NCBI GenBank assembly: GCA_041651055.1
Contig: JBAZJW010000001.1
Location: 20,737 to 84,736, forward strand
Reading direction: 5' to 3'
From: Minisyncoccota bacterium
GTDB taxonomy: Bacteria; Patescibacteriota; Minisyncoccia; Phycocordibacterales; UBA5272
DNA length: 64,000 bases
Part shown: positions 11,356 to 48,321 of the stretch, one piece after another
Layout: every line of letters starts with the position of its first letter
Position numbering within the stretch: position 1 is the first letter of the stretch
Position numbers and translations under genes: made by a program
Notes under the pieces: model-generated
Databases searched by the model: none
What the model saw: only the letters and a program-made list of their open reading frames with translations
What the model was told of the DNA's origin: nothing

Positions 11356-12987
11356 ATGAATCCAAAGGATCAAATCAAAGAAAATCTCTCCATTACGGAC
11401 GTGGTTTCGACATATATTCGTCTTGAAAAGTCGGGTGCACAATTTCGTGCGCGTTGCCCATTCCATAACGAGCGCACGCCGTCGTTTTATGTTTCACCTG
11501 AGAGAAAATCATTTCACTGTTTTGGTTGCCAAACACACGGTGACATTTTTACCTTCGTAGAAAAAATTGAAAACATTCCATTCTTCGAAGCTCTTAAAAT
11601 CTTAGCCGATCGTGCTGGAGTCGAGCTCACGAATTCACAAAAGAATAAAGAAGACACTCGACTCATTTCACTTTTGAAAGATGCCACTGATAACTTCGAA
11701 AAGAACTTGAAACAAAGTCCCGAAGCCATGCATTACCTTATCGATCGTGGTCTCACAGAAGACACCATCAAAACATTTCATATAGGGTATGCTAAGAATG
11801 AATGGCGCGACACATTCATCGCTCTTGTAGCTAAAGGGTATCAACCAGAAGAGATTGAATTATCCGGCCTCGCTATCAAAGCGACAGATGATAATGGTAA
11901 TACGAAGGGTTGGTATGATCGTTTTCGTGGGCGTGTGATGTTTCCTATTCGCAATGTATCCGGTGCCACAGTGGGCTATTCTGGGCGTATTATGCCATCT
12001 CTGGTGGACCCCTCAGTTGCACAAGGTAAGTATGTGAACACTCCCGAGACAGCTCTCTATCATAAGTCCAAAATTTTATTTGGCTATGACACGGCGAAAA
12101 AGAAAATGGCAGAAACAAAATCGGTTGTGGTCGTGGAAGGACAGATGGATTTGTGTATGAGTTATCAGGCAGGAGTGCACAATACTGTCGCAGTATCAGG
12201 GACTGCGTTTACAGATGAACATATTCATATCATTAAACGATTTTGTGATACGGTAATCCTTTCTTTTGATACGGATACAGCAGGGAAGAATGCACTGAAA
12301 AAAACAGCACTCCTTTGCTTGCTCGGTGGACTCGATGTGTATGTTGTCGGAGATATTGGCACGAAGGATCCGGCAGATTTAATTAAAGAGCGTCCCGAAG
12401 CGTGGATACAAGCAGTGGAAAAGAAAAAGCACGTCGTGGAAGTAATGCTCTCTCATATAATGGAAGAAGAAAAAGATGATCGTAAGCAAGGACAGAGAAT
12501 CGTCACAGAAGTGTTGCCATTTTTGCGCGCTATTTTGTCACCGATCGATAGAGCACATTTCATAAAAGTAATTAGTGGTAAATCTCATATCCCAGAGAGT
12601 ACACTCACAGAAGAATTGAATCGTGGTGCGGTAACTATTGTCGAAGAAGCGAAAGAAGTAACAGCATCTCTTCCGAGCAAGGAGCGTCTAACGAGAGAAA
12701 TTATTGCGTACGCGACACTCACAGGGAAAATGGCTGATGAAAAGTTACAAGCACTCGCACTTGATATGAATCAATTTCCAGAAGCTATTTTGCAAGAAGA
12801 GATGTTTAAGTTAGAAGAACGAGTGATTGCAAACAAAGAAGAATACTTCGAGGATCTTATCAAGACATACAAAAAAGTAGAACACAAAGAAAAGTTGACA
12901 TCTCTTCAGAACAAGCTTCGTGAAGAGGGGGCGGATCATGAAGCTGTTTTGAAAGAAATTTACGATCATGCGAAAAAGGCCACTTGA
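11356..12987 (+). CDS. dnaG: DNA primase
   Basis: CHC2 zinc finger CPFHNERTPSF...HCFGC, toprim region. Confidence 0.92.
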   Translation: MNPKDQIKENLSITDVVSTYIRLEKSGAQFRARCPFHNERTPSFYVSPERKSFHCFGCQTHGDIFTFVEKIENIPFFEALKILADRAGVELTNSQKNKEDTRLISLLKDATDNFEKNLKQSPEAMHYLIDRGLTEDTIKTFHIGYAKNEWRDTFIALVAKGYQPEEIELSGLAIKATDDNGNTKGWYDRFRGRVMFPIRNVSGATVGYSGRIMPSLVDPSVAQGKYVNTPETALYHKSKILFGYDTAKKKMAETKSVVVVEGQMDLCMSYQAGVHNTVAVSGTAFTDEHIHIIKRFCDTVILSFDTDTAGKNALKKTALLCLLGGLDVYVVGDIGTKDPADLIKERPEAWIQAVEKKKHVVEVMLSHIMEEEKDDRKQGQRIVTEVLPFLRAILSPIDRAHFIKVISGKSHIPESTLTEELNRGAVTIVEEAKEVTASLPSKERLTREIIAYATLTGKMADEKLQALALDMNQFPEAILQEEMFKLEERVIANKEEYFEDLIKTYKKVEHKEKLTSLQNKLREEGADHEAVLKEIYDHAKKAT

Positions 12988-13146
12988 TACCTTGAAGCAA
13001 TATTCAATAACATACTATTTAATATTCAAACAATACCAGATTTAGTATTGTGATTTCGTGTTTATGTTGAATATTGATTATTTTTTTTATTAAACATTGA
13101 AACCTAAGCGGTTTCTTGTCCCCTCGACTTTTTTGTATTTCCATAG

Positions 13147-13152
13147 TATAAT
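13147..13152 (+). promoter_or_regulatory. rpoD -10 box (TAgTATAAT); short leader
   Basis: Same ccatRGTATAATcc context as the rpoB promoter; ATG 15 nt downstream. Confidence 0.45.
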
Positions 13153-13166
13153 CCGCGGTACGTCCT

Positions 13167-14600
13167 ATGGCGAAAAAAGTATCTTCACAAAAAAAGAGTG
13201 TACAGAAAAAAACTACGACCAAAACCGTAGCAAAAAAATCAAATAAAAAAATGGCGGTCAAGAAAGCAAAAGTGACCCCAATCAAAAAGACATCTGTAAA
13301 GACCCCGATTAAGAAGACCGCGAAAAAAGTCATACCTACAAAAAAGGCAAATAATGTACGTCCAAGACGGGCACTTGCTAGTTCAAAAGTAACCAAGGTT
13401 GTGCCAAAGAAGGTTGTTGCAAAGAAAGTTGCAAAATCAACACCAAAAGTTGAGGTTCAAGCAAAGCCAAAGTACAAGCCAAAGGCTTTCACGATTAAAA
13501 CTGGTCCATCAAAACCAAAAATAGAAGTAAAGACCAAAAAAATTCTGACGCGTGATCAGAATGAAGAAGAGTTGCTTGCGAAAGGTAAGGAACGTGGTTT
13601 CATTACGTATGACGAAATCATTCGTTATTTCCCTACGATTGAAACAGACATTTTATATCTCGAAGAATTGTATGAGAAAATGGGGGCTGCAGGTATCGAT
13701 ATTCTTGAAGGTGGAAACCTTCTCGATATGGATGATGACCTCCTCAAAATTGAAGGACGCGATAGTACACACGATAGTATTCAAATGTACTTGCGTGAAA
13801 TCGGCCAGTATCCACTTATTTCAGGAGATAATGAACGTGAACTCGCACAGCGTATTGAAAAAGGGGATATAGAAGCAACAGCGCTCCTTGCAAAAGCGAA
13901 CCTTCGTCTCGTGGTGTCGATTGCCAAGAAGTATGTCGGACGATCATCTGACCTTACGTTGCTTGACCTTATTCAAGAAGGAAATCTCGGCCTTTTCAAA
14001 GCGGTTGAGAAATTCGACTGGAATAAAGGGTACAAGTTTTCAACGTATGCCACATGGTGGATTCGTCAGGCTATTACACGAGCACTCGCGGATCAGTCAC
14101 GTACGATTCGTATTCCTGTACACATGGTAGAAACTATCGCCAAGTACAAGCAAGTGGTACGTCGTCTTTCACAAGACTTGGGACGTGATCCTCTTGCAGA
14201 AGAAATTGCTGTTGAAATGGGTGTGGATGTAGAAAAAATTCACATCATTGAAAATATTAATCAGGATACCGTGTCACTCGAAAAACCGATTGGAGATGAT
14301 GATGACAAGTCTACACTTGGAGAATTTATTGCAGATGATAAGATTCTTTCACCGGATGCTGAAGCTTCACACAGAATTCTCGCAGATCAGATCAATGAAA
14401 TCTTGGACGATCTTTCACCAAAGGAGCGCAAGATCGTAGAAATGCGAAATGGTCTCGGAGAATTCGATGGCGTTATGCATACACTTGAAGAAGTGGGCGC
14501 GGAATTCGGTGTCACACGTGAACGTATTCGTCAGATTGAAGCGAAGGTACACGAGAAGATACGAAGTCATGAGAAGTCGGAACGACTTCGAAACTATTAG
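13167..14600 (+). CDS. rpoD: RNA polymerase sigma-70 factor with ~130-aa lysine-rich N-terminal extension
   Basis: Sigma regions 1.2, 2, 3 and 4 ([13 protein letters not shown], region 4 HTH); N-terminal AKK/KKT low-complexity tail. Confidence 0.93.
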
Positions 14601-36247: not shown

Positions 36248-36320
36248 GCCCCTATAGCTCAGCTGGTAGAGCATCGGACTCTTAATCCGCAGGTCGTAGG
36301 TTCGATCCCTACTGGGGGCA
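36248..36320 (+). tRNA. tRNA-Lys(CTT), no encoded CCA
   Basis: Acceptor gccccta/tgggggc, D-stem gctc/gagc, anticodon loop ctCTTaa, T-loop ttcgatc. Confidence 0.8.
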
Positions 36321-36324
36321 CAAT

Positions 36325-36379: not shown

Positions 36380-36473
36380 GAGCACATGAACTGCTTCATG
36401 TGCGTAAGGGATCGAATAGGGGTCGCGAAACTACTTCGAGCAAAGCGAGGTAGTTTTGTGACCGATCCCTACC
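36380..36473 (+). repeat. tRNA-linked hairpin element copy E2 with leading 9-bp hairpin GCACATGAA-ctg-TTCATGTGC; outer stem GGGATCG/CGATCCC, bulge AATAGG, 17-bp inner stem with 3 G:U pairs
   Basis: 3' arm CGATCCCTAC equals the tRNA-Lys T-arm; near-identical leader plus element recurs at 52562-52667. Confidence 0.65.
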
Positions 36474-37227: not shown

Positions 37228-37309
37228 GCCCGGGTGATGGAATGGTAGACATAGAGGACTTAAAATCCTCAGCGCGTTTGCGCGTGCGGGTTCGAGTCCC
37301 GCCCTGGGC
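37228..37309 (+). tRNA. tRNA-Leu(TAA), no encoded CCA; integration target
   Basis: Acceptor gcccggg/cctgggc, anticodon loop ctTAAaa, hairpin variable arm, T-loop ttcgagt. Confidence 0.85.
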
Positions 37310-38867
37310 ACAAGACAGGACAATCTGGTACGAAAGTATCAGATTTTCCTTTTTTAGCAGTACTTTTACGTGGTTCGAAATTATTTTGACTATCTATTTT
37401 CTGTTGAACCCTTTGAGCGAGTACTTCAACTGGCCTCTTTAATAATGACAACACTTTTTCATCTTTAAGAGTGATGTTCGAAAAAATATGAGATAAAAGA
37501 GTTCTTCTTTCTTCGGGTGTTCTTTTCTTATAGATTTCCTCCGCTCGAAAAGCAAGATCCAAAATGTTTAACCATATTTCAAAATACCTAGTTTCTATAT
37601 TTTTAATTTTTGATATTTGCTCCTGAATACCTTGCTGCTCTTTGTTAATTTCGGTCTGTCTCTTTTCCCATGTGTCGGTACTAATCTTCTGGTCTAATCT
37701 ATCGTTATACAGTATGTCTAGACGGCTCTGTAATTGAATGTAGCGAGCGTTTAGTGTCTTGAGGGTGTTTTCTTTGTATTCTATTTCTTGAATATGGTTT
37801 GCCTTAATTTTCTCCTTTATACGTTCGGCTTCTTCAGGTTTTATATTCTTAAAGAAATTAAAAACTCCTAAAAGTTGCTCTTCAATTTTTGATTCTGGGG
37901 TATATGGTTTCTGTGTACACTCGTTATAGTGATTACAATGATAGTAGACAATACCCTTCTGTATTTCTGCGGTAATCGTACCATTGCACTCGCCACACTT
38001 CATCATTTTCTTAAATTGAAAATTATGTTTACTGTATGAAGGAGTAAGTTTTCCTCTTTTCACTGATTGTGCTTTATCAAATAGTTCTTTTGTAATTATC
38101 GGCTCATGTTTTGCTTCTGGGTAAAGTACATCATTCCAGACCATCGCACCATAATAAAAAGGTTCATTGAGAATCCTCTCTATTCTACTTTTTGCTAACT
38201 TTCTACCTGCACGAGTTCTGAAGCCCTCTTTATATAATTGCTGACGTACTGCTTCCATTGAGTGATTACTACTAGAATACAACTCAAATGCTTTCTTTAT
38301 AAAAGGAGCAACCGATGTATCGATGACATGTGTCTTGTGGCCTTTATCTCCAACTGTTTGGTAACCAAGAGGGGATCTGGTTGGTAACCATCCTTGAGCA
38401 AGTTTCTCTGCTTGCCCCTTGCGTACCTCTTCAGAAAGATTTGAAATATATTTCTTGGCTAGGACAATTTCAATATCCCAACGAAACTTTTCATCAGATT
38501 TAGCGTTTTTATGAATAATAAGGTTCTGTTTAACAAAGTGTATTTTTCTTTGATCATCTTCATCGATCCAATCGTTTGCAACTACTGCTTCTTTCAAATT
38601 ACGCGTAAGGCGGTCTACTTTTTCTACTATAAGGTTTTTAACCTTGTTTTTATCTATATATTCCATCATTTCAGCAAAAACTTTTCTCTGTTTTGTTCCG
38701 CTTGCGCTTTCAGCGACAGAGAATACTTTGTTAACTGTAAAACCCTTGCGATTCGCATATTCTTTTAATAACTTCTCTTGTGAAGGTAGTGAGTACCCGG
38801 TCTCTTCTTGTTCCTTTGTTGAAACTCTACAATAGAGAACTGAGTTATTAGTATCAATGTTTTTCAT
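37269..38867 (-). CDS. Large serine recombinase (integrase); C-terminus overlaps the tRNA-Leu(TAA) 3' end
   Basis: Resolvase-type N-terminal domain with catalytic [10 protein letters not shown], recombinase and zinc-ribbon regions, coiled-coil tail. Confidence 0.85.
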
Positions 38868-38914
38868 ATATTTATTTTATCATTTTTAGTTTGATTGTCG
38901 TACAACGATATTCT

Positions 38915-39508
38915 CTAAAATGGAATGTCGTCTAGGTTTACATTTCCAAAGGATTGGTCTACTAGTTCTGTTTTTAAGGTTTTTCCAATTTCTTTATATC
39001 TTTTTCTTGCTTCATCAGGAGTTAATTCTTTTGCTGGCGCTATGTTGGTTTTCTTACATTGGAATATTTTTATATTAGTATTCTTAATATTAGTATTCTT
39101 ACTGTGACTTTCTGTCACTTGGTATTTGTTGTTTTTGTCACTTGGTGATGCTTTTTTTGTCACACGGCCAGGTGACTTTTTGTCACCTGGTTGATACCAA
39201 GAATCTCTATTTGTAAGAACGTAACCATAATTAGCCCAATGGCCACCCCGTCTTCTTTTTTCCATAATGACTAGATTGTATTTTTCTAAAAGATGTATAT
39301 TTCTAATTATTGTTCGTTTTGATATATTAAGTTCTTGAGCAAGGAGGTCATGTGTTGGCCATGCGTAACTTTCAAGATTAGAGTGCCTTTTTAAGCAAAT
39401 GTAAATTGCTAATGCCACATGACCAATTTTAGGTGAATATTCGTCAATTAAAATATTATCAACTGAAAACCACTGACCACTTTTAGTATTGTTGTTCAAC
39501 TCTTCCAT
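38915..39508 (-). CDS. Winged-HTH DNA-binding protein (putative replication initiator or regulator of the element)
   Basis: ELNISKRTIIRNIHLLEKYNLV HTH; basic C-terminus. Confidence 0.5.
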   Translation of the reverse strand: MEELNNNTKSGQWFSVDNILIDEYSPKIGHVALAIYICLKRHSNLESYAWPTHDLLAQELNISKRTIIRNIHLLEKYNLVIMEKRRRGGHWANYGYVLTNRDSWYQPGDKKSPGRVTKKASPSDKNNKYQVTESHSKNTNIKNTNIKIFQCKKTNIAPAKELTPDEARKRYKEIGKTLKTELVDQSFGNVNLDDIPF

Positions 39509-39512
39509 GGTT

Positions 39513-39704
39513 TCATTTTGAGAAATTAGAACCCAATTCCGACACCCTAGGAGTTGAAACTAAGATGTCGGAATTGACCTCCGATTTTTCTTTTTTATGA
39601 TCCTCATAATCAAAACGAGCAAGTAAATCAAAAAAGGACGACAAGTTATCTATGTCTTCATTAGTTAGGTTCAACTCTTTTTGTAATATCAACTCTTTAC
39701 TCAT
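39513..39704 (-). CDS. Hypothetical small acidic protein
   Basis: 63-aa ORF 5 nt upstream of the next gene (operon). Confidence 0.4.
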   Translation of the reverse strand: MSKELILQKELNLTNEDIDNLSSFFDLLARFDYEDHKKEKSEVNSDILVSTPRVSELGSNFSK

Positions 39705-39811
39705 TACATAAGTAAAACAAATAAAAAATCTTCGGTAACTTATGCTTCTCTTATGATAAAAAGAAAATAAAACCCTGATTTATAAGGATTTATTTTGCTT
39801 GATCAAGAGTA

Positions 39812-40557
39812 TTATTTTAATACTTTTACTGTAAATGATTTATTTAAGAAATACCCAACTTTATTGTTAGAATCTATAACATTTTCTTTTATTCCTAGCC
39901 GTCTTTTTGCAATAATATTAAATTGAGAAATACCAACAGACAGATTCCCTTCTTTTTGGTCTAATTTAGACATGAGTTCCTCTCCGCTTAGTGGTCCATG
40001 AGTATGGAGAAGTTCAAGATATTGTTCTCTTTTTCCTTTAACAGGGTAAACCTTTTTGTTTAATTCATTTTTTAAACCTATATTCGAGAGAGTAAGGATA
40101 ACTTTTTTATTATTTTTAACTGGCCGTAACTTATTTTTTAATTCTAGGTTAACCACTCTTAAGAAAGATACTTTTTCTTTCACAGATGAAATAATGTTTT
40201 GTAACATCCTTATTCCAGATTCATCTGCATATATTAAACCATCTTCATCTTTAAAGAAAGTGACTATCGGGACAGTGTTATTCAATCTTTGTTCTAATGA
40301 GTTAAGAGTATGAACACGTACCATATCTGGTTCTGAAAGAAAATCATCAGCACTCTTTTCATTTACCTTTTTAAGTACTTTATATGTATCTAAAACCCAG
40401 TTACCATAGAAACGTTCAGCAATCTCAAAGTTTTTCGTAGTTGGATTGTTGATTGCGTTTTGGGTTATGTTTATTACTAATTTAGAATCAGATATATAAC
40501 TGTTTATTACATCTATACTTGAAGATTTTATTTTATTTTTTGAGGTCAACTCTCTCA
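39812..40557 (-). CDS. Hypothetical protein with C-terminal OmpR-type winged-helix DNA-binding domain
   Basis: Start MRELTSKNK; C-terminal ...LSGEELMSKL...VGISQFNIIAKRRLG resembles trans_reg_C. Confidence 0.5.
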
Positions 40558-40593
40558 TTACCACATTGTAACAAAAATATTGTATAATTAACT

Positions 40594-40745
40594 TGCTGAC
40601 AAACCAATATCGTTGCCCGAACAAGACCACAGGTCTTTGTTGTTGATTGTGTGCTGAATAAGCACCATATGTTTGAGGAAACATAATCAACAACCTTCGG
40701 GTTATTGGTTTGTCAGCACCTCTTACTGTGGTGCTTATTTTGTTT
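40594..40745 (+). promoter_or_regulatory. Structured ~150-nt leader for 40753-41052: TGtTATAAT promoter at 40581-40589, nested stems (16-bp TGCTGACAAACCAATA/TATTGGTTTGTCAGCA outer stem), an alternative 11-bp pairing, and a terminator-like hairpin AGCACC-9-GGTGCT plus U-run (40715-40745)
   Basis: Mutually exclusive pairings of attenuator/riboswitch type directly upstream of the start codon. Confidence 0.45.
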
Positions 40746-41190: not shown

Positions 41191-41595
41191 ATGACTGAAA
41201 TTAACCCCCACAAAATCCTCATAGGAATAAGAGCAGAACAAATTAAAAATGGAGATCCTGACTTTATTGTTAATTTACTCACTGATTTTGAAAAAGATGA
41301 TACTGAAAAGATTAAATCCTTACGCGGTAGTGTTTCTCTTATGTTCCCCAAGGTTAGTGAGTACCCCTTTGCCTTTCTGATGTGGTCTATGGGTTTGTAT
41401 ACTAAATATCCTAATTTTGCCTATTTCCTTGATAAGGAAAGTGGAGATTTTATCGTAGAAAGTATGTTGTACGATATGAAATCACCACCAGCAGATAAAG
41501 GTAAGTTATTAAACAATCTTTACAGCAAGGCAGTTGATTTCGGAATTAAATATGGTTACTCAAAAGAAGAGATGGCTACTTACTTTTCCCACTGA
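41191..41595 (+). CDS. Hypothetical protein
   Basis: Start MTEINPHK with AGGAAAATA RBS. Confidence 0.45.
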   Translation: MTEINPHKILIGIRAEQIKNGDPDFIVNLLTDFEKDDTEKIKSLRGSVSLMFPKVSEYPFAFLMWSMGLYTKYPNFAYFLDKESGDFIVESMLYDMKSPPADKGKLLNNLYSKAVDFGIKYGYSKEEMATYFSH

Positions 41596-41942
41596 AAACT
41601 CATTACGTTATTATCCTCCTCTTCAATACTATCTAATAGGTCGCCCATTCCAATAGAAGTATTTTTAACTCCAATCTCTTGTGCAGGTTTTCCAAAAGCA
41701 CGATTAAGAAGTAACTCAATAACCCGAGGATCTGGTTTTCCTCCATTACCAGTAAGTGCAACCTTAATTTGTGCGTCAATAAGTTTATCTGCCTTCTCAA
41801 GAATCTTTGCCTGTATTTGCTTGTAAACCTCTTCCTTAAGCAGTGTTTCTTTTCGTTTTCCGTGTTTACCTATTTTTGGAGACAAAAGCGCCCTCTTAAG
41901 GGCTTTCTTCTGCACTTCTGGTTTTGTTGCAAAGGTATTCAT
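41580..41942 (-). CDS. Hypothetical small basic protein, co-oriented downstream of the HerA-like ATPase
   Basis: 120-aa ORF 55 nt after the ATPase stop. Confidence 0.45.
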   Translation of the reverse strand: MNTFATKPEVQKKALKRALLSPKIGKHGKRKETLLKEEVYKQIQAKILEKADKLIDAQIKVALTGNGGKPDPRVIELLLNRAFGKPAQEIGVKNTSIGMGDLLDSIEEEDNNVMSFQWEK

Positions 41943-41996
41943 TACTGTTTAAGTATACAACAAGTAAAATGAAACCTATTAAAACGTATTGAAACC

Positions 41997-44189
41997 TTAA
42001 AAAGAAGAACCTTTTTCAACCTCTACAACTGCTGTGGTAATAGGAACAACTTTAACATTAAGAGCAACACTCGCATCATACTTTGTCTTATCAAACTCTC
42101 TCTTTGCAAGAAGAGGTCTTTCGCTCTTCACTGCCTTACCGTGCGCAACAAACTCTAAAAACTTAAGATTAGGAATTGCTTTAATGTGTTCGGAACTGTA
42201 TACACTACCTAAATACTCTAAACTAGTTTTATCTACCAAACTATGTGTGAAGTAAGTGTTACATTGAGACAAAACTGTCTTGCTAACTAGTGCTGTACGC
42301 TGAGACACAATGAGTAATCCAACGCCATATTTACGACCCTGTAAAGCAATCTGCCCGATTCTTCCAACGACCCACTGTGTTTCAGAGTCAAAACCAGAAC
42401 TGTATACTTCGGGAATTATTGTGTGTGCCTCTTCCAGAACAATCATTATCTGTTTTGCTTTGCGATTATTCCGTGCCCAGTTCATTATCGCTGATAGATA
42501 GAGTTCTGTTGTCCTTAATGTTGCTTTGGTGTTAGTTATTTCAGCAAGTTCAAATATACCAAGTAGGTCGTCTTTACTAGTTAGAAAATCTTCAATCTGA
42601 TTAGTTACTTGTGGTTTTATTCCATCTATAAATGTTTTCAATTCTCTCTTCTCATTTGGTGCACCGTAAGTGCCTATTTCTACTGCAAATAGATGTGTTT
42701 CTAAATCTGAACCTTGAGTAATAGATAAACCGATGGACACTGGATCTAGGTCTGCGAGACGCTTCTTATATTCCCCAGTGAAATCAACGCAAAATACTTT
42801 TCTGCCACGAGCAACTGCTTCGCGAATAATGTCTAGCACAAGTTCTGTTTTTCCTGTTCCTGTTACACCCAATACTGCTGTATGGTACTCAATTAAATCA
42901 TCTAACACGACAGGAATACCAAAGGAAGTAGAGGGGACTTTACCTATCATAAACTCATTCTCCTTGAGGTTTTGTGTATGAACTTCCGTTTCTGATGTGA
43001 GGAATAGAGGTTGATTCATTTCTGGAAGCCAAGAATACTTTTCAAAACCTCTATTTGGATCATAGCAACCCAATTGAGCAGCAGAAACTATATGCACTCC
43101 ATAAGGATTTTGATGAAAACTTTCTTCGTTAGTACTTGCATCTAGTATTTGATAATAAACCTTCTTTCCACGAATACAAGCAAACACGACAACTCCTTCC
43201 TCCAACTTAATACCACTTACGGATTGAAACTTTATATTAGAGATTGAAGACCCTTCAACTGTTATTCCCACAACTTTACTGTTTCTTTCCTCTCCACTGA
43301 GTATGACGCCTAATGTTTCTGCAAGACCTTCTTCGTTAATACTGTAAACTTCTCCTGTTTTAGTAGATTCATATTTCTTTCCGTCAGTTATTTCACAACA
43401 TAAACCTGTTCCTATCACTTGTTCATTTTGTATTTGTGAAAATAAAGGCAAAACGTAAGTTATCTTCCCACCAGAAAGATGCGCAATATGAACATATTCA
43501 GAAGTCCAATTATCTATATTTTCTTCAAGAGTAATTCTAACCAAGTTCGGAGCGTCAATTCGTAAAACAGAGCCAGTTAATTCTAGTACAGATTTTGTTG
43601 TCTTTGTTCCGTTAAGATAAAGGATTACTTGAATAATATGTTCCACTGGACGTGCCACAACCATAAAAGTCCAAAACCCAAGAATTGTAACCATCCATTC
43701 TGGTTCACTTTGGTAAAATCCAAGAGCACTTATAAGGACTGCAGGTGTAAAAAGTATCTCTCCTTTGCCAAAAACACCGCTCAGGCGATAAGTTACTTTC
43801 CCAAGTTGGGTATTTTGTTGAAAAGCAGATACCAGAGCACATGTAGCAACAAAAATTGCTATTACTATTGTAATGGTATTAGCAGTTTGGAGGCCGAAAC
43901 TAAAATCGGACACATTAGTAAAATCTAAAGGGGCGAGAAGAAGTACCAAAGAAATAGCAGTTGTCAAAGAGTCACGTGGAGGTAAAAAGAATGGTGCTGA
44001 AACTAAATGAAGTAACCAGTAGGCCATAGCCGCCAAAAGCCAAACACTCGCACCAGATCCAGTTGGAAAGAAACTTCCTGTTGCAAAATAATAAATTACC
44101 CACGCTATTAAAACATTTATTGCTAAAACTGTGATTCTCCATGTTTGGCTCAAAGGTTCTATGGATTTTATTTCTTGTTCTTTTGCCAT
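41997..44189 (-). CDS. Membrane-anchored HerA/FtsK-like (DUF87-type) P-loop ATPase
   Basis: About 200-aa N-terminal polytopic domain, then Walker A GVTGTGKTEL and Walker B IVLEEAH. Confidence 0.7.
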   Translation of the reverse strand: MAKEQEIKSIEPLSQTWRITVLAINVLIAWVIYYFATGSFFPTGSGASVWLLAAMAYWLLHLVSAPFFLPPRDSLTTAISLVLLLAPLDFTNVSDFSFGLQTANTITIVIAIFVATCALVSAFQQNTQLGKVTYRLSGVFGKGEILFTPAVLISALGFYQSEPEWMVTILGFWTFMVVARPVEHIIQVILYLNGTKTTKSVLELTGSVLRIDAPNLVRITLEENIDNWTSEYVHIAHLSGGKITYVLPLFSQIQNEQVIGTGLCCEITDGKKYESTKTGEVYSINEEGLAETLGVILSGEERNSKVVGITVEGSSISNIKFQSVSGIKLEEGVVVFACIRGKKVYYQILDASTNEESFHQNPYGVHIVSAAQLGCYDPNRGFEKYSWLPEMNQPLFLTSETEVHTQNLKENEFMIGKVPSTSFGIPVVLDDLIEYHTAVLGVTGTGKTELVLDIIREAVARGRKVFCVDFTGEYKKRLADLDPVSIGLSITQGSDLETHLFAVEIGTYGAPNEKRELKTFIDGIKPQVTNQIEDFLTSKDDLLGIFELAEITNTKATLRTTELYLSAIMNWARNNRKAKQIMIVLEEAHTIIPEVYSSGFDSETQWVVGRIGQIALQGRKYGVGLLIVSQRTALVSKTVLSQCNTYFTHSLVDKTSLEYLGSVYSSEHIKAIPNLKFLEFVAHGKAVKSERPLLAKREFDKTKYDASVALNVKVVPITTAVVEVEKGSSF

Positions 44190-44641
44190 GTTAAATACCC
44201 CAATAATAGCATAATAACCAACCTTTTAATTGTCTGTTTTTTTATTAAAAACAGCATCAAATAAAATATCAAAAGCCCTGTCCATTCTCCTTTGGAGTTC
44301 TTCCGGTGATAGCGATACCTTCTTGTACCTTATTTTTAGTTTTTTACTTTTTTGTTTTGTCATAAAATACCCCAACTTTTGGGTTTGAGTTCTCTAACAG
44401 GAAAATGTGTGTACTTTGGCCTCTCGCTCGTCCTAGACGATTTTGTGGCCAAATGAATCGTTGGATATTTAGTGTCTGACTATAAAAGAAAGACACTTAC
44501 TGCAACATTAAGTATATACCAAATAAAATCTGCTTAAAGTTAGAAGTTATTAAATCCTCTAATGTGAGATAAAGTGTTATAATTAAAATTATATTAAGCG
44601 TGAAAAGTTGAGATATCTTTCTTACATTATAAATAAAAAGT

Positions 44642-47032
44642 ATGGCTGTTAAAAAATCGCAATTGTATAGTTCTCTTTGGAAGAGTTGTGACGAACTCCG
44701 TGGTGGTATGGATGCCTCACAGTATAAGGATTATGTTCTTGTTCTCCTCTTCATAAAATACATCTCTGACAGATATGTAGGTGTTCCTTTCCCTCCTATT
44801 GTTGTGCCTAAAGGTGCAAGTTTCAAGGATATGGTTGCTCTTAAGGGCTCAACAACCATTGGAGATGACATCAACAAAAACATCATACAAAAAATAGAAG
44901 AAGCAAACCCTACACTGGGTAAAATTGCTGTTGATTTCAATGATCCTGTAAAACTTGGTAGTGGAAAAGATATGGTTGATAGATTAACCAAACTTATTGC
45001 TATTTTTGAAAACCAAAATCTTGATTTTAGTACAAACCGTGCCGAGGGGGACGATATTCTCGGAGATGCTTATGAATACCTTATGCGACACTTTGCATCA
45101 GAGAGTGGTAAGAGTAAAGGTCAGTTCTATACTCCTGCTGAGGTTAGTAAGATAATCGCAAAAGTAATAGGTATTTCAAATACTAAAGTACTTACTCCGA
45201 CTGTATACGATCCTGCGTGTGGATCTGGTTCTCTTCTTCTAAAAATTAGAGATGAGACAGATAAAAATGTTACCTTACGTGGCCAGGAAATGGATAATGC
45301 AACTGCCGCACTTGCTCGTATGAATATGATACTCCATAACAACCCGACATCTATCATTGAAAGAGAGAACACTCTTTCAACACCACTCTTCAAAGAAAAT
45401 AACCAACTGATGACATTTGATTTTGTTGTTGCTAACCCGCCGTTCTCTACAAAATCGTGGACTAATGGCGTTAAGGTTGGAGATGATGATACTTATGGAA
45501 GATTCACTGGATTTGGCACACCTCCGGAGAAGAATGGCGACTATGCTTTTCTTCTTCACATAGTTCGCTCACTTAAAGAGAAAGGTAAAGGTGCTGTTAT
45601 TCTCCCTCACGGTGTACTTTTTCGTGGTGGTAGTGAGGCGTCTATTCGTACTAACTTAATTCGTCGTGGATATATTAAGGGAGTTATCGGGCTACCTGTA
45701 AACCTCTTTTACGGTACAGGTATTCCTGCGTGTATTATTGTGATAGATAAAGAAAACGCAGACACTCGTAAAGGTGTCTTTATGGTTGACGCAAGTAAAG
45801 GATTTATAAAAGACGGCAACAAAAACCGACTCCGTAACCAAGACCTTCATAAAGTAGTAGATATATTCAATAAGCAACTAGAGATAGAAAAGTATTCTCG
45901 TATGGTAAGTATGGTGGAGATTGAAAAGAATGAATACAACCTCAATATCCCTCGCTATATAGATAGTCAGGAGGCAGAGGATATGCAGGATATAGAGGCA
46001 CATCTACAAGGTGGTATACCAACTAAAGATATAGAAGACCTAGGTAATTACTGGGGTGTTTACCCAACCCTCAAATCCTCCCTATTCACCGACAGTAAAA
46101 GAAAAGGATATAGCAACCTAAAAATTAAACAAGAGGAAATTAAGAATACTATTTTTTTACACCCAGAGTTCACTTCTTATTCCAAAACAATGGAAGCAAC
46201 TTTTTCTACTTGGAAAATAAAGAATAGTTCTATCTTAAAAAAGATAACTAAAGGAGTGAAACCAAAGGAAATAATTCCGACAATATCAGAAGATCTACTC
46301 TCTGCTTTTAGTAATACCAATCTTATAGATAAGTATGATATTTATGAACACCTTATGGTTTATTGGTCAGAGACAATGCAAGACGATATGTATCTTATTG
46401 CAGACGATGGATGGAAAGTAACTCTCCAAATAATAGATGCAAAGAAAGGCACAACAGAGTGCGACCTTGTTCCAAAGCATCTTATTATTAACCGTTACTT
46501 TGCAAAAGAAAAGCAAACTCTTGATGATTTACAAACTAAACTAGACACATCAACACGAGAAATAGAAGAAGTAGTTGAAGAGTACAGTGATGACAGTGAA
46601 AAAGGGTATTTTACTGATTTTGAAAAAGTAAGTAAGACAACAGTAACTTCAAGAGTTAAGCAGATGAAGAACAGTGTTCAAGATAAAGAAGAACTTATGG
46701 TAATGGAAAAGTACCTTTCACTTGTTGAAGAAGAGTCAAGAGCAAAAAAAGAAATTAAAGATGTGGAGATTTCTCTTGAATTGCAAGTTGTCGCAAAGTA
46801 TAAAACTCTAACAGAGGAAGAAATCAAGGTTCTAGTAGTAGATGACAAATGGTTAGCAACGCTTGAACAAGCAATTCACAGTGAAATGGATCGTATTAGT
46901 CAGCGCCTTACAGGGCGTATTAAGGAACTCGCAGAGAGATATGCAACACCTCTCCCCCTTCTTGTTACAGACACGGAGGTACTTACCAGTAAGGTAGATG
47001 GACATCTTAAAACAATGGGATTTGTATGGTAG
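44642..47032 (+). CDS. hsdM: Type I restriction-modification N6-adenine DNA methyltransferase subunit (long form with coiled-coil C-terminal extension)
   Basis: DPACGSGSLL (motif I) and NPPF (motif IV); 796 aa. Confidence 0.9.
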   Translation: MAVKKSQLYSSLWKSCDELRGGMDASQYKDYVLVLLFIKYISDRYVGVPFPPIVVPKGASFKDMVALKGSTTIGDDINKNIIQKIEEANPTLGKIAVDFNDPVKLGSGKDMVDRLTKLIAIFENQNLDFSTNRAEGDDILGDAYEYLMRHFASESGKSKGQFYTPAEVSKIIAKVIGISNTKVLTPTVYDPACGSGSLLLKIRDETDKNVTLRGQEMDNATAALARMNMILHNNPTSIIERENTLSTPLFKENNQLMTFDFVVANPPFSTKSWTNGVKVGDDDTYGRFTGFGTPPEKNGDYAFLLHIVRSLKEKGKGAVILPHGVLFRGGSEASIRTNLIRRGYIKGVIGLPVNLFYGTGIPACIIVIDKENADTRKGVFMVDASKGFIKDGNKNRLRNQDLHKVVDIFNKQLEIEKYSRMVSMVEIEKNEYNLNIPRYIDSQEAEDMQDIEAHLQGGIPTKDIEDLGNYWGVYPTLKSSLFTDSKRKGYSNLKIKQEEIKNTIFLHPEFTSYSKTMEATFSTWKIKNSSILKKITKGVKPKEIIPTISEDLLSAFSNTNLIDKYDIYEHLMVYWSETMQDDMYLIADDGWKVTLQIIDAKKGTTECDLVPKHLIINRYFAKEKQTLDDLQTKLDTSTREIEEVVEEYSDDSEKGYFTDFEKVSKTTVTSRVKQMKNSVQDKEELMVMEKYLSLVEEESRAKKEIKDVEISLELQVVAKYKTLTEEEIKVLVVDDKWLATLEQAIHSEMDRISQRLTGRIKELAERYATPLPLLVTDTEVLTSKVDGHLKTMGFVW

Positions 47033-48321
47033 AAATAACTATTAAAAAAGGATATAAGCAAACTGAAATTGGGGTAATTCCGGAAGATTGGGATATTGTC
47101 TCATTTAAAAAAATTGCTGATAAGAATAAAAAATGGAGTATAACAGGGGGCCCTTTTGGTTCAAACTTAAAGAAATCAGATTACACCAATGACGGTGTTC
47201 AAATTATACAATTACAAAACATAGGAGATGGTAGATTTATTGACGATTACCAAATTTTTACTTCAAAAGATAAAGCCGATGAACTTTTGAGTTGCAACAT
47301 TTATCCAAATGAGATAATTCTTTCAAAGATGGGAGACCCTGTTGCTAGGGCTTGTTTTGTTCCTGAAAAAAACGAAAGATATCTTATGGCGTCAGACGGT
47401 ATCAGATTAGTTGTAAATGAAAATGAGTTTTCTAAAAAATTTATTCACGATTATATTAATTCTGCCTATTTTAGAAACAGAGCATTTGAGGTAAGTATGG
47501 GCTCAACTAGGTTGAGAATAGGGTTACCGAAATTAAAAGGACTTAGTGTGGTTAAGCCACCAAAAGAAGAACAGGATCTTATTGCCACAATCCTCTCCGA
47601 TACAGATGCGCTCATTAACCACTTGGACAAACTAATCACAAAAAAGAAAGCAATTAAACAAGGAACAATACAACAACTTCTTACTGGTAAAAAACGCCTC
47701 CCTGGATTTAGTGGTGAGTGGGAAGAAAATAAATTGGTGAAGATAGCAGATTTTTTTAAAGGTAGAGGTCTTTCTAAAAGCAAAATTGAAAATAACGGCC
47801 AATATTCTTGTATTTTGTATGGCGAGTTATTTACAACATACGCTCGGGTAATAGATGAAGTAAAAAGTAAAACAAACTTCACTGAGGGATTAACCTCAAC
47901 AGAAGGAGATATTCTTATGCCTGGATCAACGACTACTGTTGGGATTGATCTAGCCGTAGCGTCCGTTTTAAATAAAAATGATGTACTGATTGGTGGTGAT
48001 GTAATTGTAATTAGGAAGAAAAAGCAAGAGTTCTACAACCCTAATTTTCTTGCAAATTATTTAACTCACGTCTCAAAATATAAAATAGCCGGAATTACAC
48101 AGGGTATAACAATAATTCATTTGCACGGTAGTAGGTTGCAGGAAATAATGGTAAAGATACCAAAAGACGTGAGCGAACAAACTGCCATTGCTACAATTCT
48201 CTCTGATATGGACAAAGAAATTGAACTCATAGAACATAAACGAGATAAATATATAATGCTAAAAAATGGTATGATGCAACAATTACTAACAGGCGCTATT
48301 CGTATATATGGAAACAAATAA
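47026..48321 (+). CDS. hsdS: Type I restriction-modification specificity subunit
   Basis: Two target-recognition-domain halves with conserved spacer; overlaps hsdM and hsdR. Confidence 0.8.
   Translation: MVEITIKKGYKQTEIGVIPEDWDIVSFKKIADKNKKWSITGGPFGSNLKKSDYTNDGVQIIQLQNIGDGRFIDDYQIFTSKDKADELLSCNIYPNEIILSKMGDPVARACFVPEKNERYLMASDGIRLVVNENEFSKKFIHDYINSAYFRNRAFEVSMGSTRLRIGLPKLKGLSVVKPPKEEQDLIATILSDTDALINHLDKLITKKKAIKQGTIQQLLTGKKRLPGFSGEWEENKLVKIADFFKGRGLSKSKIENNGQYSCILYGELFTTYARVIDEVKSKTNFTEGLTSTEGDILMPGSTTTVGIDLAVASVLNKNDVLIGGDVIVIRKKKQEFYNPNFLANYLTHVSKYKIAGITQGITIIHLHGSRLQEIMVKIPKDVSEQTAIATILSDMDKEIELIEHKRDKYIMLKNGMMQQLLTGAIRIYGNK

Follow-up and report, generated by a model that had tools for sequence, protein, structure and literature searches.

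What does a membrane-fused ATPase do in an integrative element of a bacterium of the candidate phyla radiation (CPR), and does it act together with the small basic protein encoded beside it? The question is raised by a 64,000-nt stretch of a Minisyncoccota bacterium genome (GenBank assembly GCA_041651055.1, contig JBAZJW010000001.1, positions 20,737 to 84,736 of the forward strand), hereafter the window, to whose first letter all coordinates of the home locus refer. Within a mobile island of the window, an open reading frame (ORF) on the minus strand (41997..44189) encodes a 730-aa protein, which we call TM-HerA, in which transmembrane (TM) helices are fused to a HerA-type ATPase. A 120-aa basic protein is encoded on the same strand (41580..41942), 54 nt 3' of the ATPase ORF, and a type I restriction-modification (R-M) system lies divergently on the other side. 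An earlier note, made from the sequence of this stretch, took the ATPase and the small protein for an operon that could be either a new anti-phage module or the transfer ATPase of a mobilisable element. Our comparisons suggest that TM-HerA is a stand-alone candidate defence gene, directed against phages or mobile DNA, a reading to which we give about an even chance.

The TM-HerA reading frame was assigned from the ORF call, the Pfam DUF87 match, an AlphaFold2 (AF2) model and Foldseek comparisons. It comprises, in order, an N-terminal polytopic membrane domain with about six TM and two interfacial helices (residues 1-200; 43590..44189), a beta-rich domain that corresponds to the HAS-barrel region of HerA by secondary structure and by alignment to HerA chains (residues ~203-400; 42990..43583), and a RecA-like ATPase core delimited by motifs, homolog alignment and a PDB profile search (residues ~410-712; 42054..42962), with the Walker A motif GVTGTGKT at residues 441-448 (nt 42846-42869) and the Walker B motif LEEAH at residues 585-589 (nt 42423-42437), all on the minus strand. 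The polytopic domain of about 200 aa and the DUF87/HerA core with its two motifs had both been read from the sequence in the earlier note, and both were recovered here, the first by the ORF call, Kyte-Doolittle hydropathy and AF2, the second by Pfam, where DUF87/HerA (PF01935 / COG0433) matched residues 414-573 at 44.8 bits, against a gathering cutoff of 23.2. In the AF2 model (mean pLDDT, the predicted local distance difference test, 82), eight helices extend to residue ~196, followed by the beta-rich region (203-400) and then the ATPase. Foldseek aligned everything C-terminal to the membrane domain, over ~440-590 columns, to HerA chains (E = 3.6 × 10−19 to 1 × 10−13, probability 1.0); the top matches were the defence-system HerAs 8wiv, 8wld, 8xav and 8ziq (SIR2-HerA and DUF4297-HerA), with Sulfolobus HerA (4d2i) next. 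A profile of 26 homologs, in which GxTGxGKT, LEEAH and QGRKYG of the ATPase core are invariant, was searched against all PDB sequences and returned eight sequences, all of them HerA, and no type IV coupling protein (T4CP) chain. We found no FtsK_SpoIIIE match in Pfam or NCBIfam at E <= 0.01, and a TrwB_AAD_bind match covered residues 431-479 only, a 49-residue P-loop stretch (profile positions 12-60 of 387). Sequence and predicted structure together thus identify the protein as a genuine member of the HerA clade, not a relative of FtsK or VirD4.

Comparison with models of specific systems shows scores far under their cutoffs. The NCBIfam equivalogs for anti-phage HerA, NF042943 and NF042944, gave 70.5 and 69.2 bits, respectively, against cutoffs of 800 and 850; the archaeal HerA equivalog also scored far under its cutoff, and the Ced equivalogs gave 55.7 bits against 600 (CedD) and 19.8 against 700 (CedB). 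The HerA models of PADLOC and its mad8 model matched the ATPase part alone. Given the sub-cutoff equivalog scores and the confinement of the matches to the ATPase part, we place TM-HerA in the HerA family at large and in no named subfamily or system. No model in Pfam-A, NCBIfam 20.0, PADLOC-DB 2.0.0 or PHROGs 4 covers the full-length family, so that the description of the protein as an uncharacterised membrane-anchored HerA, named as a system by no library searched, stands. In the full-text literature searched, a TM-fused HerA/DUF87 family in defence was not described, with an earlier mention in the 2004 FtsK-HerA survey possible; the papers matched dealt with SIR2-HerA, Synechocystis Sll0284, archaeal dark matter and lactococcal Abi proteins.

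The membrane domain is about as conserved as the motor, with 45% mean column identity across phyla. Hydrophobicity is strong over the first ~200 residues, where Kyte-Doolittle segments lie at residues 17-41, 49-69, 75-93 and 96-126; 11 residues are invariant (P42, W50, W58, L62, P66, P70, P71, L85, E144, W173 and P181), and polar motifs are conserved at residues 70-73 (PPRD), 141-144 (G(K/R)GE) and 180-183 ((R/K)PVE). The topology would be one of six TM helices, N-in/C-in, with the motif loops at the cytoplasmic face, as read from the positive-inside rule rather than computed. The linker from this domain to the HAS-barrel is very short. Searching residues 1-205 against 1.84 billion representative proteins yielded 141 clusters, in every one of which the domain was N-terminal; the matched sequences were either full length (~700-760 aa) or fragments at contig ends in which DUF87 begins at about residue 410. 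Other architectures were considered and rejected, since the shorter matches are all such fragments. As all 141 clusters consist of full-length fusions or such fragments, the membrane domain exists only in fusion with HerA. Among solved structures, no relative of the domain was found.

TM-HerA is present or absent as a unit in related elements (loci other than the window are numbered with the prefix L). Loci L083 and L102 carry the gene for the 120-aa protein at 82-87% identity and no ATPase, and in both the small gene directly follows sequence homologous to a conserved micro-ORF of 45-49 aa that in the window (44226..44375, minus strand) lies directly upstream of the ATPase cassette. In blastn comparisons with the island, L102 matched window positions 47081-44233 and then jumped to 42000-40848, and L083 matched 44460-44228 and then 41997-41577. 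The piece concerned (41998..44232, minus strand) measures 2.23 kb, consists of the ATPase ORF and a ~40-nt leader, and has AAGGTT at both edges. The micro-ORF, which the earlier note had missed, encodes a basic product that contains ...SPEELQRRMDRAFDILFDAVFNKK...; counterparts of 40-45 aa were called as genes at the corresponding position in L083 and L098-L101, and L102 has homologous sequence there. Since L102 and L083 lack exactly the 2.23-kb piece, we assign the small protein and the micro-ORF to a small operon in the backbone of the element and the ATPase to a single-gene cassette inserted between them.

The distribution of the ATPase is wide and patchy. An identical protein is recorded from a Candidatus Paceibacterota metagenome-assembled genome, on a 775-kb contig. 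At least 210 species, from many phyla, have a member of the family, and we fetched 80 loci, one per GTDB species, of the 210 confirmed matches; these 80 come from CPR, Alpha-, Delta- and Gammaproteobacteria, Acidobacteria, Planctomycetes, Verrucomicrobia, Gemmatimonadota, Chloroflexi, Firmicutes, Actinobacteria and Leptospira. Identity between CPR and alphaproteobacterial sequences is ~50%, and the gene is horizontally transferred. It was found on 9 of 72,556 plasmids, inside defence islands and away from mating-pair formation (MPF) genes. A phage origin of the ATPase was considered and rejected, with no homolog in 50,697 phage records. The copies on Bradyrhizobium plasmids (L104, L111 and L112) are N-terminally truncated or split by frameshifts and lie in islands rich in IS256, IS3 and IS21 insertion sequences (IS), which suggests ongoing gene decay there.

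We compared all neighbouring genes with each other by all-vs-all BLASTP of 8,230 ORFs from the 80 loci and the window (E 1 × 10−8, 50% coverage), and again under relaxed conditions for genes within 1.5 kb of the ATPase (E 0.01). Under neither setting did any neighbour family recur with the ATPase beyond generic ones (ABC ATPase, SDR, Fic, transposase, integrase, AddAB and GGDEF/EAL). Recognised defence genes, in turn, were located within 10 kb of the ATPase in 8 of the 12 annotated independent contexts: type I R-M in the window; an AAA_15/SMC_N ATPase and a reverse transcriptase in L082; Zeta toxin, Fic, Eco47II R-M, PDDEXK, bAvd, PIF1, EcoRI methylase and GmrSD in L091; Shedu SduA_C, followed by Pycsar PycTM and cyclase, in L095; NACHT in L097; type I R-M at a 4-nt gap in L107; restriction endonuclease, Abi, Fic, HipA, RelE and NERD on the Bradyrhizobium plasmids; and AbiEi/AbiEii with two reverse transcriptases on an Aminobacter plasmid. 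The Pfam families that recurred among the 137 nearest neighbours in the 80 loci were mostly N6_Mtase, N6_N4_Mtase, Eco57I, Mrr_cat, RVT_1, SIR2_2, UvrD, AAA_21, SMC_N and PDDEXK_1, whereas among 98 control genes located 7 kb away or more only ABC_tran, AAA_21 and AAA_29 did so, the last two of which we take to be matches on the same ABC ATPases. By a crude measure, the number of PADLOC families matched at E <= 1 × 10−10, the near set gave 309 for its 137 proteins and the far set 72 for its 98. Matches to mad3 and mad8 of PADLOC among the neighbours were rejected as a signal, being equally present in the far control set. At L001, a gene for an Imm26 + DUF7674 protein (12198-13178) lies 17 nt 3' of a Parcubacteria ATPase 65% identical to TM-HerA; Imm26 is an immunity-protein family from polymorphic toxin systems.

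Two further observations link the ATPase to effectors. In the Bradyrhizobium loci L017 and L018 (B. japonicum and B. zhengyangense), the ATPase ORF is followed by a SIR2_2-domain gene whose start overlaps the ATPase stop codon (gap −3); this second gene is located at 12154-12966 in L017 (271 aa) and at 12154-13911 in L018 (586 aa). The pair resembles a variant of SIR2-HerA in which the gene order is reversed and the HerA is membrane-fused. In addition, the homolog P0271 (1273 aa) has a C-terminal extension of ~530 aa (residues ~740-1273) with weak matches to DUF559 (E = 0.015) and PDDEXK_1 (E = 0.005) and, by eye, a RecB-type motif, IVDWK...QQSIY.

The closest known systems are SIR2-HerA (Nezha / Gao_Her_SIR) and DUF4297-HerA (Gao_Her_DUF), which share the motor, HAS-barrel plus HerA ATPase, with TM-HerA, are its best matches in fold and sequence, and likewise occur in defence islands. 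In published structures of these systems, the HerA hexamer is a platform with the partner effector on its HAS-barrel side. TM-HerA differs from them in that it has a unique 6-TM domain N-terminal to the HAS-barrel and, in the window and in most loci, no separate effector gene; its neighbours in the window are the 120-aa protein without family, the micro-ORF and hsdM, an adjacent SIR2 gene being found in L017 and L018 only, in the order HerA then SIR2. With the archaeal HerA-NurA end-resection helicase it shares the fold and the ATPase motifs (4d2i, 9x1m), but it has no NurA-like neighbour, is fused to a membrane domain, belongs to bacterial hosts and is mobile and patchy. The match to the MADS component mad8 (residues 414-666, E = 1 × 10−13) covers the ATPase core only, and the island has no other mad genes.

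Under the assumption that TM-HerA is a defence gene, it would be the one-polypeptide counterpart of the two-gene HerA systems, the membrane domain replacing their SIR2 or DUF4297 effector. As this domain is N-terminal to the HAS-barrel, the channel of the predicted hexamer would face the inner membrane, and ATP-driven engagement of invading linear DNA could be coupled to the membrane domain. The likeliest outcome would be an opening or disturbance of the membrane (abortive infection), and, with lower likelihood, the DNA would be held or expelled at the site of entry; the 120-aa protein would have no part in this mechanism. A more far-reaching version, an immune or transport machine in which the hexamer channel is continuous with a membrane assembly of 36 helices and novel fold that either acts on nucleic acid crossing the inner membrane, by seizing, expelling or jamming injected phage or plasmid DNA, or forms an ATP- and DNA-gated pore, is one that we hold to be improbable.

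To our knowledge, HerA-based immunity has been known only in the form of two-gene systems with soluble SIR2 or nuclease effectors, and we know of no described precedent among HerA systems for an entry-stage mechanism of a single protein. If true, one-gene, membrane-embedded HerA immunity would be new, with either a new type of effector or action at a new site, the membrane, in a gene that ranges from CPR bacteria to rhizobia and is mobile as a 2.2-kb cassette. As it would need no partner, it should be easy to test, and the membrane domain, having no solved structural relative, is a target for structural work. The comparison of loci also documents the exchange of defence cargo in integrative elements of Candidatus Paceibacterota.

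Several findings weigh against defence as the function. TM-HerA scores about 70 bits with the anti-phage HerA models, against cutoffs of 800-850, and is thus no orthologue of the defence HerAs known so far. Four of the 12 annotated contexts carry no clear defence genes, L085 and L098 being ambiguous and L106 and L109 purely housekeeping, and the defence association as a whole is drawn from these contexts and from crude family counts, not from a genome-wide score. The nuclease matches of P0271 are sub-threshold (E = 0.005-0.015) and come from one cluster alone. Finally, a conserved membrane domain directly under the channel of a DNA motor fits a transmembrane DNA conduit equally well.

The rival that survives best is a membrane function outside defence, in secretion, envelope stress or membrane-associated DNA repair, with the presence of the gene in islands reflecting shared hotspots. 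The two housekeeping contexts and a membrane domain without recognisable relative are consistent with it, and many accessory genes share hotspots with defence genes. However, the gene is patchy and horizontally transferred, with its ~50% identity between CPR and Alphaproteobacteria, and is often degraded in IS-rich islands; it has links to SIR2 and to a nuclease-like extension, and its best-scoring relatives among the solved structures searched are defence-system HerAs. We consider such a function unlikely.

Next comes a membrane DNA pump, that is, a one-protein translocase of double-stranded DNA that would carry the element or other DNA across the membrane, be it in conjugation, export or uptake, in line with the transfer ATPase that the earlier note had offered as its second option. 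An N-terminal TM domain joined to a hexameric motor is the architecture of FtsK, TraB and VirD4, and TM-HerA shares an N-terminal membrane segment and a ring ATPase of the same superfamily with FtsK/SpoIIIE, Streptomyces TraB, clostridial TcpA, VirD4/TrwB and archaeal CedB/CedD. Its conserved membrane domain abuts the motor channel, its gene shares an integrative element with genes for a recombinase and a Rep-like protein, and it has weak matches to CedD, CedB and TrwB_AAD_bind. Unlike these translocases, however, TM-HerA falls in the HerA clade, has a membrane domain unlike any that has been solved, and has no transfer genes nearby: neither Pfam nor PHROGs detected a relaxase or type IV secretion system (T4SS) gene in the island, and no gene for a relaxase, a T4SS, a pilus or any other transfer function is a recurrent neighbour in the 80 loci. 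The Ced scores are below a tenth of their cutoffs, and the TrwB match is limited to the Walker A stretch. Moreover, L083 and L102 share the flanking backbone genes with the island and carry a serine recombinase but lack the ATPase, the few plasmid copies lie within defence islands apart from MPF genes, and a SIR2 operon partner or a nuclease-like extension would make no sense for a transfer pump. We therefore regard a pump as improbable, and our comparisons do not support a transfer ATPase or coupling protein.

The remaining two alternatives attach TM-HerA to its neighbours, and we rate both as highly improbable. According to the first, the ATPase and the 120-aa protein form a two-gene system of sensor and effector, or of motor and DNA-binding adaptor. 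The small protein is indeed co-oriented with the ATPase and basic, as the earlier note had it; its pI is 9.4, its first 60 residues contain 16 K/R vs 7 D/E, and its C-terminus is acidic. The 54-nt gap contains no terminator-like site, the scan for promoters and terminators being uninformative there, and the adjacency recurs in the CPR elements L081 and L098-L101, the latter with other cargo upstream. However, neither phmmer nor tblastn finds the small gene in any of the 80 species-level ATPase loci, L083 and L102 keep it after the micro-ORF homolog without the ATPase, and a 73%-identical ATPase in L082 has other neighbours. The 120-aa protein has no family in Pfam, PADLOC, NCBIfam or PHROGs and no PDB sequence match; its homologs form 37 clusters and are found in related CPR integrative elements, some of which have the ATPase and some of which lack it. 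Comparison of these loci indicates that the two proteins are not a functional module. The pair is not conserved outside one lineage of CPR elements, and its adjacency in a mobile element gave the false appearance of an operon. What is left of the anti-phage module of the earlier note is the ATPase, plausibly a defence gene by itself; the pairing with the small protein falls. The second alternative, in which TM-HerA is an accessory of type I R-M, as a motor cooperating with HsdR or as a membrane tether for restriction, draws on type I R-M or N6-methylase genes being the commonest neighbours (the window, L107, L048, L057, L038 and L076), but most loci have no R-M system, orientation and spacing to the hsd genes vary, L102 has an intact hsdMSR-YgjP block and no ATPase, and the cassette is accompanied by other cargo in L098-L101.

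The stand-alone candidate gene sits in an element whose other parts can be delimited. The island spans 15.4 kb, with a GC content of 0.31-0.38 vs 0.42-0.51 in the flanks, and is integrated at tRNA-Leu(UAA). A 16-nt direct repeat, CGAGTCCCGCCCTGGG, marks its attachment (att) cores on the plus strand, attL at 37293-37308, inside the 3' end of tRNA-Leu(taa) (37228-37311), and an identical attR at 52652-52667. Backbone genes identified with Pfam and PHROGs occupy 37269..40693 on the minus strand and encode a large serine recombinase at the left end of the island (37269-38867), an HTH_36 replication-initiator-like protein (38915-39508) and a 293-aa protein (39812-40693). Divergently from the ATPase, on the plus strand, Pfam identified a complete type I R-M system, hsdM (44642-47032), hsdS (47026-48321) and hsdR (48308-51376), followed by a YgjP-like metallopeptidase (51366-52091). 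The att repeats, the recombinase, the low GC content and the start of hsdM at 44642 agree with the divergent hsdMSR inside a mobile island proposed earlier; from its persistence in L102, the R-M block is a separate and independent defence cargo of the element.

Some minor features of the element and its relatives were also recorded. The serine recombinase ORF and tRNA-Leu(taa) (37228-37311, plus strand) overlap at their 3' ends by about 43 nt (window 37269-37311), so that the recombinase reading frame runs across the att core. In the sister element L083 (2416-9656), hsdM is followed by genes for a 508-aa reverse transcriptase (RVT_1) and a 367-aa protein without Pfam match and then by hsdR, and no hsdS annotated as Methylase_S was called between hsdM and hsdR. 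In L098-L101 (e.g., L098 5424-7345), a Tad4-family gene (PF25186) and a Palm_thioest gene lie upstream of the ATPase cassette; should Tad4 be an anti-Thoeris family, as the name implies, an anti-defence gene would adjoin a candidate defence gene. Lastly, a repeat of ~90-125 nt with the hairpin GCACATGAA...TTCATGTGC occurs in three copies of 72-91% identity (36380-36466, 52562-52658 and 55184-55309). Two of the copies lie 54-60 nt 3' of tRNA-Lys (36248-36321) and tRNA-Leu(tag) (55048-55130), and the remaining one is within the island, directly next to attR; these repeats could be recombinase-binding arms, scars of related elements or a small RNA.

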